Positions 55,946 through 58,560 of a DNA stretch of 64,000 nt are shown piece after piece. The notes under the pieces are model-generated. The model saw only the letters and a program-made list of their open reading frames with translations, was not told the DNA's origin and ran no database searches. Numbering within the stretch: the stretch's first letter is position 1; every line of letters starts with the position of its first letter. The stretch is from Reclinomonas americana ATCC 50394 (taxonomy: Eukaryota). The stretch lies in NCBI GenBank assembly GCA_048213135.1, contig PS015082.1, forward strand, positions 162,466 to 226,465. The letters run 5' to 3'. The position numbers and the translations under genes are program-made.

Positions 55946-58560
55946 TCACGCCGCACCGGGCACCGGCACACGATAGGCCTTGGCCTCGGCGGCGGCCGCC
56001 AGACGCAGACTCTGAATGTCGGAGGCCAGCTGTTGCAGACTGGAGGTCAGGCGGTCGATGCGCTGGCGGGTCTGGATCAGATCGTCCTCCTCCGTGTTGA
56101 GATCCTGCAGGTAGCGACGCAGCAGCGTGCTGTCCGACACCTTCTCGAGACTGCGAATGTTCTCGCGCAGGCGCTCCTGGTTGGTGAACACCTGTCGAAT
56201 GTGGGACTCGAGGCGCGAAACCTCGTTGCGCGTGTTGGCCTCGGTGGCCTGCGCTTCGAGGTGGCGCGACAGCAAGGCCAGCACCGAATCCGGCACCACC
56301 ACCACAGTCTCTCCGCTGCCCGGGCGGATAGTGACGCCTTCGCGCCACTGGCGTACGTCGTCCTCGGTGACGCGATTGGTGCTGGCGATGCGCTGCAGCA
56401 CGGACTTGGTCTCCTGCGCCACCACCTCCATGAAGGCGCGGTCGCAGTCGGCCTTGGAGAGCAGGCCTTGCGCCAACCACTGGTCGGCGGCCTTGGTCAG
56501 GAAGGGGCGCGCACCCGGCATGCGCGTCTCGTAGGTGACCTCCTCCTCCACGCAAAACTCGATCTGCTGCTGCGGCGGCAGGTCAAAGGCGAAGCGCGAG
56601 AAGCACGCGGTGTGCTTGATGCAGTTGTCGGTGGTGGTGATGGTGAAACCGCCGCAACTCGCATCGGCGTAATGGTCAATGTAGAAGCGCGGCACTGGAC
56701 CAGAGCTGTTGTTCTTGAGCGTGTACAGCGTGCGGTTGACTCGCTTCTCGCGCACGATGCAGGCCTCGATGGTTGACGGCTGTTCCGTGCTCGTGGACAG
56801 CTGAAGGCGGCAGGCCAGCACGTCGCGAGTGGCCATGTTTGCCGGCTTGGTGCACTGAATGCTGACGGTGCTGTCCAGGGCGTAGCCAATGAGCTGATCG
56901 TCGCCAGGCAGCATGGGAGTGAACTCGACCTGGCCCACGAAGCGACCGTCCTCCAGCACCGAGATCGAGCCGTTGCACAGCACCACATCCGAGGCGTTGA
57001 CCAGGTGCACGGCGCGTGTGGCCGTCACGGCGTTGACCTTGGCGTCGAACACCAGCACCGACTGCGCGGTGAGAACGTGGCTCGCCACGCTGACCATGGC
57101 GCTCTCGCGGGCGCGGATGGTGACGGGCTGTGCAATCGCGTACACCACATGCTCGCCGAGGCCGCTCATCTGGCGCGCATCGAGCGCCTCAAAGTCCGAG
57201 TCTTGCAGCGAATTCGGGTCCTTTTGTGCCACCTCGGAGCCACGCAGGCGAAGCACCAGATGCAGAGTCGACTCCTTCTGGATGTTGTAGTCGGCCAGAG
57301 TACGACCGTCCTCCAGCTGCTTGCCGGCGAAAATCAGACGCTGCTGATCCGGGGGGATGCCTGTGTAAGAGGGCGACGCATTGGTACGCGTGCGGGGGAG
57401 GGACAGGGAGGGGAAGCACCCAGATATATCAGCATACCTTCCTTGTCTTGAATCTTCACCTTGACGCTGCCGACCGTTTCGCTCGGCGACACATCCAGCG
57501 TCACCGTCTTGCCGGTGAGGGTCTTGACAAAGAGTTGCATGCCGCCAGACGACGAGCCCGCCGAGCTCTCCTCCAGCACGATAGCGGCGGCAGCGCCCTT
57601 GGCCTTGGAGGAGGACGCCTGACCGCCGGCCACCGGCAGCACCACCAGTTCGTTGGCGACCAGGTTGAGCAGCACTTGATCCCAGTCCTCGTCGGTGGGG
57701 TTCTGCACCATGGCCAGCTGCTGCAGCGCCATGGTCGCACTGTGGCCCGTGTCAGTGCTGCGGCCACCGCGGCTCGGTGGTGCCGGCATGTCGAGGCGAT
57801 ACGAGCACTTCCACTCCTTGGCGCGCGCCAGGTAGCCGCAAGACAGCGAGGCCGCATAGGAGCCGGAGCCAGAACCCGACTCTCCACCAAGAGGAGGAGG
57901 AGTGCTGTCGACCGACGACGCCACAATCGTCACACTCGTCTTGCCATTGTCGCGCGGAACCGGCACACGTGCACGACGCGCCACGCCCAGCGCCGCCACG
58001 AGCTGCTGCTGCATGATCGGATCCGTCATGGTGATGCTGGCGACCTGCGAGAGCCACACACTGCGCAGGCAACCAGTGGCCGGCTGCAACACGCACAACC
58101 GCACGTCGGCCCGCTGCTGCAACTCCGGCACCGCCTTGCGCTGCTCGACCAGCACCAGTGGGCCCTGCAGCTGCTCACGGTCGTCCAGCGCCACAGCAAC
58201 CTCCAGACCGACACACGACTCAAGGAAGCCGCCCAGCGACTGCGACTCAAAGTCGAACTCATACAACATACGGTCCTCGTCGCTGACCGTCGGCGCCTTG
58301 CTGTCGTAATTGACTGTGACGGCGAAGCCACTGGGCGCTTGCACGCAGAGCGTGTCGACCATTAGTGCCTTCTCCGAGCGCGGCACAGCCACCGTGTACA
58401 AGTGTTGCAGCTGATGACGAGCGGGAGAGGGAGTGCGGCTGCTGCTGCTGCCCGGCGCGCTAATGGCGGAGGACAGTGGGGCCTCGCGCTCCAGGTGCGC
58501 CAGGCTGTTCTTGAACAGCGTCACGCGCTTGAGCGGAAGAGTGCCAGTGGTGTCGGGCAT
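55946..58560 (-). CDS. DUF4139/DUF4140-like protein with an internal ubiquitin domain
   Basis: N-terminal [53 protein letters not shown]...G.FVG, F..D and C-terminal coiled coil (QERLRENI..L...RYL..L..EED); single intron 57361-57437. Confidence 0.8.
57236..57540 (-). other. Embedded near-canonical ubiquitin domain ending LRLRGS (G76S)
   Basis: [76 protein letters not shown]. Confidence 0.95.

Follow-up and report, generated by a model that had tools for sequence, protein, structure and literature searches.

Can a ubiquitin be built into a protein in such a way that it is never taken off again? The question is raised by a gene of the eukaryote Reclinomonas americana ATCC 50394, which lies on the minus strand of a stretch of 64,000 nucleotides. 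This stretch, called the window here, spans positions 162,466 to 226,465 of the forward strand of contig PS015082.1 (NCBI GenBank assembly GCA_048213135.1), and coordinates below are counted from its first nucleotide. The gene encodes a protein with a nearly canonical ubiquitin in the middle of a body that resembles bacterial DUF4139 domain proteins. I performed a computational analysis of the gene, its homologs, and the predicted structures. In summary, the ubiquitin lies in frame within the protein and very probably cannot be cleaved off, the same arrangement recurs in diverse eukaryotes, and the junction that follows the ubiquitin appears to have been under selection.

The gene and its eukaryotic family

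The gene has two exons, and its parts are as follows.

55946..58560, minus strand: whole gene, from the ATG at 58560 to the TGA stop codon at 55946-55948; protein of 845 aa
57438..58560, minus strand: exon 1, with the N-region, the linker ahead of the ubiquitin, ubiquitin residues 1-34, and base 1 of the Gly35 codon
57361..57437, minus strand: intron of 77 nt, GT..AG (GTATGC...CACAG), in phase 1 within the ubiquitin Gly35 codon
55946..57360, minus strand: exon 2, with the second and third bases of the Gly35 codon, ubiquitin residues 36-76, the post-ubiquitin linker, the C-region, and the stop codon
57541..58560, minus strand: N-region, residues 1-340, beta-rich; includes the opening portion of the DUF4139-like domain as well as the linker, rich in Gly and Ser, that precedes the ubiquitin
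57236..57540 including the intron, minus strand: embedded ubiquitin, residues 341-416; G75 codon at 57239-57241, S76 codon at 57236-57238
56516..57064, minus strand: beta-rich part of the C-region (residues 58-240 of the C-region model), where the DUF4139-like domain resumes after the insertion
55970..56290, minus strand: long antiparallel helical hairpin at the C-terminus in the predicted structure (helices 316-362 and 370-422 of the C-region model)

When the exons were joined by these coordinates, they gave 2538 nt in one open frame, that is, 845 codons and a single terminal stop codon, and the N-terminus agrees with the consensus start of the family described below. The intron splits the Gly35 codon after its first base, into G and GC. 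Outside the ubiquitin, about 2.3 kb of coding sequence (1020 + 1287 nt) is uninterrupted. The protein is of a cytosolic type without a signal peptide.

The embedded sequence was compared with human ubiquitin using PDB chains and HMMER alignments. It is identical at 25 of 34 positions in residues 1-34 and at 39 of 41 in residues 36-76, which makes 65 of 76 with Gly35 counted. The differences are I3L, I13V, E16D, E18S, D21E, I23V, E24G, N25S, A28V, S57A, and G76S. The residues L8, I44, H68, and V70 and the seven lysines (K6, K11, K27, K29, K33, K48, and K63) are all retained. Both pieces match the Pfam ubiquitin family PF00240 (cut-off 25.4 bits), the exon-1 piece with 27.2 bits over profile positions 1-32 and the exon-2 piece with 55.9 bits over positions 34-72. 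The near-identity, the patch residues, the seven lysines, and the LRLRG tail mark it as ubiquitin proper rather than a diverged ubiquitin-like (UBL) domain. On the other hand, by sequence it lacks the exposable Gly75-Gly76 of a conjugatable ubiquitin; the gene has G75-S76. Upstream of the ubiquitin the protein reads ...SSAGSSSGG, and the end LRLRG-S is followed by SEVAQKD..., with 429 residues after S76.

An earlier note on this DNA, made from the sequence alone, had described a near-canonical ubiquitin in frame that ends LRLRG-S after SSSGG, a single phase-1 intron in its Gly35 codon, and about 2.3 kb of intronless flanking coding sequence. All of this stands, with the intron being the only one in a gene model that reproduces both the N- and the C-terminus of the family. 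No second ubiquitin-like coding sequence was found in the 64,000-nt window, and PADLOC returned nothing beyond weak matches of a coiled-coil type. In one public sequencing run, a 763-nt contig is 96% identical to positions 56010-56772 of the C-region (30 differences); to judge from this match, the sample holds a close relative of the source organism. No contig spanning the intron was found in the three sequencing runs compared with the gene. The short high-depth pieces over the ubiquitin part in those runs probably come from ordinary ubiquitin genes and are uninformative on expression.

Is this architecture common among eukaryotes? A search with the C-region only, which contains no ubiquitin residues, retrieved 58 proteins at E <= 1.7e-33, and 43 of them carry PF00240. 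The other 15 are fragments of at most 475 aa; the first 90 residues of 14 of these hold no ubiquitin, and P0006 begins inside the ubiquitin tail. An alignment of the C-region without the ubiquitin served for an exhaustive profile search, which found 200 representatives at E <= 1e-30, 1072 at E <= 1e-10, and 2680 at E <= 1e-3. The best 150 of the 2680 all score at least 200 bits and are close family members, with the distant, presumably bacterial, matches lying outside them. In a 30-row alignment, all 28 homologs share one site for the ubiquitin, which fills 75 columns there without a gap. The PF00240 scores of the homologs scanned against Pfam range from 91 to 105 bits. Among 72 further family proteins of at least 600 aa, the ubiquitin lies at the same site in all except P0188 of Aphanomyces astaci. 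The helical hairpin carries a family motif, NQxRLRENIxSLEK...RYLxDLxxEED, taken from the consensus and the invariant columns.

The taxonomic span of the family rests on the few members with source names, whose lineages were checked. They are Arcella intermedia and Vannella in Amoebozoa, one Symbiodinium-type gene model of a dinoflagellate, Rotaria and Didymodactylos in bdelloid rotifers, and Aphanomyces astaci, A. stellatus, and A. euteiches in oomycetes (Stramenopiles). Marine transcriptomes (MMETSP and EukProt entries) are also among the sources, and the ubiquitin is in frame in five such transcript-derived homologs (P0016, P0021, P0026, P0034, and P0042). By these sequence comparisons, the R. 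americana gene is a member of a widespread eukaryotic family with a ubiquitin in one loop of a beta-rich body. Since Stramenopiles, Amoebozoa, a dinoflagellate, and rotifers share the architecture, the fusion should be old.

In databases, the members are labelled 'ubiquitin', 'polyubiquitin', 'ubiquitin-like domain-containing protein', or 'DUF4139 domain-containing protein'. This is a warning for annotation; such genes may be filed as 'ubiquitin' or 'polyubiquitin', or be stripped of the ubiquitin cassette in deposited models. Among the matches listed in searches of the full-text literature on internal or non-cleavable ubiquitin and on DUF4139/MuiA, no description of the family was found, and 'mucoidy inhibitor' together with ubiquitin had no match in the literature. 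In the literature passages that mention it, DUF4139 appears as a label in gene tables. The earlier note would have given up its proposal if the architecture proved widespread and already characterised; it is widespread, while no characterisation was found in the literature searched.

The ubiquitin junction and the descent of the module

Is the serine after G75 a peculiarity of the R. americana protein? I gathered 194 family proteins, and the end of the ubiquitin is visible in 94 of them. LRLRG is kept in 94 of 94. What follows G75 falls into two main types: Gly76 followed by Pro in 44, and a residue other than Gly in 46. The replacements of Gly76 in the latter are diverse (S 10, D 9, N 5, E 4, C 3, K 3, and also P, H, R, A, Y, V, Q, and T). 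In the remaining 4, GG precedes Q, C, A, or I. Thus, 90 of 94 family members lack a cleavable GG-X junction. By sequence, these 90, including the R. americana protein with its G76S, have the junction of a substrate of the pathway known as ubiquitin fusion degradation (UFD), in which G76 is substituted or followed by Pro.

Have the two types of junction arisen repeatedly? A quick IQ-TREE phylogeny of 75 rows was made after the ubiquitin and linker columns were removed and the two exon rows of the gene were merged, with P0063, a bacterial relative, as the outgroup. P0008 and P0005 form a group with the R. americana gene (support 100). The two junction states, GG-Pro and G-X, are mixed across the tree, and at least 17-18 changes are forced by its starred branches. 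The model was simple and many rows have an odd composition, so individual branches should be read with care, and contrasts were counted on the starred branches alone. Among 72 rows, 30 have both G76 and P77, 3 have G76 without P77, one has P77 without G76, and 38 have neither. In 17 independent contrasts, Pro77 tracks Gly76 in 14-15, shows no difference in 2-3, and never goes in the opposite direction (sign test p ~6e-5). Because Gly76 is lost or Pro77 is kept in this coupled fashion, the non-removal of the ubiquitin appears to be a selected trait. It seems that Pro77 is maintained only while there is a Gly76 to protect. The uncleavability proposed in the earlier note is thus very probable, given the scarcity of GG-X junctions and the covariation of Pro77 with Gly76.

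Conservation of the ubiquitin itself was assessed in 71 members. Identity is 100% at K6, L8, G10, K11, E34, G35, P37, Q41, G47, K48, Q49, L50, Y59, N60, H68, and L71-G75. It is 99% at I44, V70, K27, R42, and R54, 96% at K63, 94% at K33, 77% at K29, and 63% at M1. The variable positions are 1-3, 5, 13, 16-26, 28, and 57. The mean p-distance is 0.21 for the ubiquitin, 0.60 for the C-region, and 0.70 for the N-region. The ubiquitin distances correlate with those of the C-region (Mantel r 0.39) and of the N-region (r 0.30), and for each none of 2000 permutations gave a value as high. This correlation argues for vertical descent with the host gene and not for repeated replacement by the cellular ubiquitin. 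One member, P0149 (889 aa), has a visibly decayed ubiquitin with the end LRLKEGP and several core changes, which suggests relaxed constraint in at least one lineage.

Does the intron tell where the ubiquitin came from? The gene was compared with 57 related metagenomic loci. In 38 of them, some on contigs of 11-42 kb, nothing interrupts the ubiquitin, and its frame continues into the C-region. The short contigs may in many cases be derived from transcripts, and only the long ones count as intron-free genes. Three loci reach the ubiquitin partly, at the edge of the contig, and 13 do not reach it. In the last three (L009, L011, and L012), it is instead the E64 codon that a phase-1 intron splits. 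The E64 intron lies at about 3345-3420 in L009 and about 887-920 in L012, and that of L011 is placed by match coordinates and a score equal to those of L009. The Gly35 intron is thus absent from the 41 related loci that hold the ubiquitin (38 uninterrupted and three with the E64 intron); it is therefore specific to its lineage and carries no information on the source of the ubiquitin. The G+C content at third codon positions (GC3) is also close between the ubiquitin (0.78) and its flanks (0.81 and 0.86).

The earlier note had suggested that this lineage captured a host ubiquitin module, with the Gly35 intron as a clue to its origin. This part is not supported. The architecture is family-wide, at the same site, in several eukaryotic groups; the intron is absent from the 38 uninterrupted loci, and three others have the E64 intron; and the composition bears no sign of a recent capture.

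A few gene models of A. astaci lack the ubiquitin. P0188 (706 aa) is identical to P0198 (827 aa, labelled 'polyubiquitin') but for a 122-aa cassette that holds the ubiquitin, and P0199 (687 aa, 6 member sequences) is a second such model. They may reflect either an annotation artefact or alternative splicing that skips the cassette. A natural ubiquitin-free subgroup was considered and rejected, as P0188 is an alternative model of a ubiquitin-bearing A. astaci gene.

The body of the protein and its surroundings

What is the protein that carries the ubiquitin? The gene was scanned as two exon pieces. DUF4139 (PF13598, cut-off 31.8 bits) matches the exon-1 piece with 23.9 bits (profile positions 2-50, residues 240-300, 57661..57843) and does not match the exon-2 piece. 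All of 10 full-length homologs match DUF4139 at E <= 1.6e-4, two of them above the cut-off. In a scan of 13 homologs, P0013 (35.4 bits) and P0027 (35.7 bits) pass, and the other 11 score 21.9-31.7 bits. In 8 of the 10 full-length homologs, the ubiquitin falls within a single DUF4139 stretch; for example, residues 217-523 of P0013 correspond to profile positions 1-110. These alignments place the insertion site within the DUF4139-like domain. The MuiA family TIGR02231 (cut-off 112.6 bits) is matched below its cut-off by P0008 (45.9 bits), the exon-2 piece (24.4 bits; profile positions 316-421 on residues 63-168 of the piece), the exon-1 piece (11.8 bits), and P0063 (26.9 bits). To judge from these scores, the family is a distant relative of MuiA, not a member.

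The nearest ubiquitin-free relative found is P0063, a protein of 686 aa from Acidobacteriota that was returned by a search with the N-region. An hhalign comparison of the family with P0063 covers 632 columns with a probability of 99.96 and an E-value of 7e-39, that is, the homology extends over the whole body. At the site of the ubiquitin, P0063 has a low-complexity linker rich in Pro, Ala, and Gly. It starts with a hydrophobic, signal-peptide-like segment, whereas the eukaryotic members begin directly at the first strand. P0063 itself scores 24.1 bits against PF13598, below the threshold. P0063-like genes were found in 8 loci, every one from an Acidobacteriota assembly, and no neighbours in common were seen in the two of these 8 loci whose neighbourhoods were compared. 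The Atlas clusters closest to the C-region are bacterial (Myxococcota and Acidobacteriota), and in one of them 27% of the members carry DUF4139, which is taken as a lead only. The earlier note had placed the ubiquitin in the variable central linker of a bacterial-type, DUF4139-like protein. The linker of P0063, the hhalign result, the profile matches, and the Atlas clusters all bear this out, the relation to DUF4139/MuiA being distant. As a description of the sequence, 'bacterial-type, DUF4139-like, variable central linker' is fair; by the curated thresholds the family would be a distant branch and not a formal member.

How does the ubiquitin sit in this body? An AlphaFold2 model was built for the homolog P0008, to which the gene is about 45% identical, from a 76-row alignment (mean predicted local distance difference test score, pLDDT, 83.1; predicted template modelling score 0.68). 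The model has beta-rich parts at 9-280 and 414-622, a beta-grasp fold at 308-382 in between, and C-terminal helices. The beta-grasp is preceded by a segment with pLDDT below 50 (299-304) and followed by blocks with pLDDT of 69-77. A model of the C-region of the gene itself (pLDDT 80.2) has strands within 58-240 and the long antiparallel hairpin of helices 316-362 and 370-422. The family linkers have median lengths of 29 aa before the ubiquitin and 18 aa after it, and the fraction of Gly plus Ser in the ten residues preceding the ubiquitin is 0.49. The models suggest that the ubiquitin is a tethered, separate domain on flexible Gly/Ser-rich linkers. A predicted complex of the P0008 ubiquitin with the two halves of its own body scored 0.01, too far below the mark of 0.34 to give an answer.

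With the full-length P0008 model, the matches listed by Foldseek against the PDB and by a wide structure search (VIA) were ubiquitin or UBL chains. With the C-region model, the wide search gave generic long-helix matches alone (Z <= 12.5, residues 286-429), and Foldseek gave nothing convincing (template modelling score <= 0.23). These searches barely probed the beta part of the body, and no new fold is claimed.

In the window around the gene, open reading frames (ORFs) occur in same-strand runs, which suggests multi-exon genes. The adjoining ORF of 499 aa (53999-55498, minus strand) contains long stretches of poly-Asn and poly-Gln. An intergenic element of about 150 nt was seen in three copies on the plus strand, at 52290-52470, 55580-55760, and 58757-58937, with a mean column identity of 81%. 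Its 16-nt core, ATGAGGCGACCATCGC, has 3 occurrences against 0.07 expected. The copies share one orientation and lie in three successive gaps, one of them about 260 nt upstream of the ATG and one about 200-300 nt beyond the stop codon. A search of Rfam over 51500-59500, which includes the element and the gene, gave no match. The element might have a shared regulatory role, or it might represent a small RNA or a dispersed repeat. Low-GC blocks at 1-8000 and 26001-28000 (GC 0.33-0.44 against about 0.58 elsewhere) contain long open frames in all six frames, and Tandem Repeats Finder reported nothing at a score of at least 200 in 1-9000.

Possible functions and comparison with known systems

What could a ubiquitin do that cannot leave its protein? 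The function that I infer, leaning towards it with reservation, is that of a permanent in-cis signal for ubiquitin receptors or chain-building enzymes, a natural internal counterpart of the UFD signal. The ubiquitin would not be removable, with Gly76 either replaced (by Ser in this gene) or followed by Pro, and the protein would therefore be permanently 'mono-ubiquitinated in cis'. Since the L8/I44/H68/V70 patch, the I36/L71/L73 patch, the tail up to G75, and K6, K11, K48, and K63 are nearly invariant, the ubiquitin is probably read by receptors and extended by E2 and E3 enzymes, and chains might be built at K48, K63, K11, or K6. The body and the partners of its beta domain and helical hairpin would in this way be coupled to the proteasome, to Cdc48/p97, or to other ubiquitin-binding machinery. 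Either the protein itself may be turned over as a result, or the machinery may be recruited to a partner. A bolder form of this idea, which I offer tentatively and regard as rather doubtful, is an ancient eukaryotic 'hard-wired ubiquitin': selection might have kept a chain- and receptor-competent ubiquitin welded into a scaffold of bacterial ancestry through at least 17 switches of the blocking mode. It would serve as a constitutive chain seed or as a permanent docking site by which p97, the proteasome, or other readers reach the partners of the beta domain and the hairpin. If true, this would be a natural in-cis ubiquitin signal not previously described and the first physiological counterpart of the UFD reporters.

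Several observations weigh against a permanent signal of this kind. The ubiquitin is internal (residues 341-416 of 845) and fused at both ends, while classical UFD substrates carry it at the N-terminus; recognition by Ufd4-type ligases or threading by Cdc48 would be an extrapolation. K29, the priming site in UFD, is the least conserved lysine (77%). The invariant L71-G75 tail, K6, K11, and K63 go beyond the needs of a simple degron. Such broad conservation would fit 'many partners' and equally a role directed at deubiquitinases, which the invariant tail suits at least as well. The four members with GG followed by Q, C, A, or I are potentially cleavable. A. astaci has models with the cassette (P0198) and without it (P0188 and P0199), so that the cassette might be optional. 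The bacterial gene neighbourhoods are dissimilar in the two of 8 loci compared, and no solved structure returned by the searches with the C-region model is convincingly like the beta part of the body.

Deubiquitinases recognise the tail of ubiquitin. The protein could thus be a pseudo-substrate that offers an intact but non-hydrolysable tail to a USP, UCH, or OTU enzyme or to a proteasomal deubiquitinase, acting as an inhibitor, an anchor, or an adaptor. The tail is kept (L71-G75 in 100% of 71, LRLRG in 94 of 94) even though the C-terminus is never free, and the junction is non-hydrolysable in 90 of 94 with coupling of Pro77 to Gly76. However, K6, K11, K48, K63, and the TEK-box residues are equally conserved and would be needless for a pure bait, and I consider this role unlikely. 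It is quite improbable that the ubiquitin is a structural spacer without signalling, which fills a tolerant loop and keeps its likeness through gene conversion or fold constraints. Such a loop is indeed suggested by the variable linker of P0063 at the same site, by the skipping of the cassette in some A. astaci models, and by a ubiquitin GC3 that is the same as in the flanks. Yet the ubiquitin distances co-vary with those of the flanks (Mantel r 0.39 and 0.30, 0 of 2000 permutations). The mean divergence of 21% is concentrated at residues 16-28, while K48, K63, K11, R42, H68, R72, and R74 are 96-100% conserved. Relaxation at 16-28 together with conserved surface residues that have no role in the fold is a pattern expected from neither conversion nor fold constraints, and the coupling of Gly76 and Pro77 has no structural rationale.

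Could the junction be cut after all? A dedicated or slow protease might cleave near the end of the ubiquitin, for instance at GG-Pro, and release the N-half with the ubiquitin from the C-half, so that the ubiquitin would be a cleavage module or a timer. Bonds between ubiquitin and Pro are cleaved slowly rather than not at all, some enzymes are capable of it, and Gly76 is kept in 48 of 94. But 46 of 94, including the R. americana protein, lack Gly76 and have very diverse replacements, and the parts on either side of the insertion make up a single DUF4139-like domain, which cutting would split. This makes a processed precursor very improbable. Least credible of all is that the ubiquitin is usually spliced out as an optional cassette or is an annotation artefact, with a mature protein of an ordinary DUF4139-like type. 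The A. astaci models without the 122-aa cassette, P0188 and P0199 (6 member sequences), speak for it. Against it, the gene has no introns at the borders of the ubiquitin, and its internal intron restores the ubiquitin frame exactly. The five transcriptome-derived homologs contain the ubiquitin, it is uninterrupted and in frame with the C-region at 38 related loci, and the strong purifying selection on it requires translation.

How does the family compare with known systems? The body aligns from end to end with the bacterial P0063 and resembles DUF4139/DUF4140/MuiA proteins, with PF13598 scores from below to just above the threshold and TIGR02231 scores below it. In contrast to the eukaryotic members with their ubiquitin, P0063 has the signal-peptide-like start and the low-complexity linker. 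The family may serve as a handle on the uncharacterised DUF4139/MuiA superfamily. A ubiquitin in a surface loop of another domain has been engineered in barnase (PDB 3q3f; rank 17 in the structure search, Z 14.4). By the title of its entry, 3q3f was made for mutually exclusive folding and domain swapping, whereas the natural family has long linkers (medians 29 and 18), which probably let the ubiquitin and the body both stay folded.

Like polyubiquitin, Ub-eL40, Ub-eS31, and the algal fusions of ubiquitin with NiSOD, actin, or a membrane protein, the family has a genuine ubiquitin fused in frame to a further protein. In the classical fusions, GG precedes a cleavable residue and processing takes place; in contrast, the junction of the family appears to be selected for uncleavability. 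In the work on the algal fusions, internal ubiquitin domains and 'hypothetical protein' partners are described for Bigelowiella natans, one of 832 aa, and Guillardia theta (PMC6332867). This 832-aa protein of B. natans might belong to the family.

The UBL domains of Rad23, Dsk2, parkin, BAG1, and midnolin are likewise beta-grasp folds that stay unprocessed within a larger protein and dock on the proteasome or on ubiquitin-binding partners. The full P0008 model matched UBL structures with Z of 12-15, and those UBLs are 12-41% identical to the ubiquitin of the model. The NCBIfam Rad23 model gave a weak match to the ubiquitin part only. Such integral UBLs are usually terminal. The embedded ubiquitin differs from them in its identity to ubiquitin (65/76), its seven lysines and LRLRG, and its place in the middle of a domain.

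The closest parallel lies in the laboratory. Uncleavable fusions are described there as made by placing Pro after Gly76 or by replacing Gly76, as in Ub-Pro-beta-gal and Ub(G76V)-X (PMC3791797, PMC7664869). In UFD substrates, Ufd4 modifies K29 and Ufd2 modifies K48 (PMC7664869). The family shows both blocking modes (44 and 46 of 94), with K48 at 100% and K29 at 77%. However, the engineered substrates are artificial with an N-terminal ubiquitin, while that of the family is internal, fused at both ends, placed in a loop of a domain, and conserved across eukaryotic groups. UBB+1 is a natural product of a frameshift or error; its status as a UFD substrate is taken from a title in a reference list.

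Uncleavable ubiquitin fusions are central laboratory tools for the UFD pathway, Cdc48/p97, and the proteasome. To my knowledge, they have been seen as artificial reporters, the error product UBB+1 apart. The family suggests that such a fusion is made deliberately by many protists, oomycetes, and bdelloid rotifers. With it, the effect of a permanent ubiquitin in cis could be studied on a natural substrate or adaptor. It also maps the surfaces of ubiquitin that matter when conjugation is impossible: residues 16-28 relax, and the rest do not.

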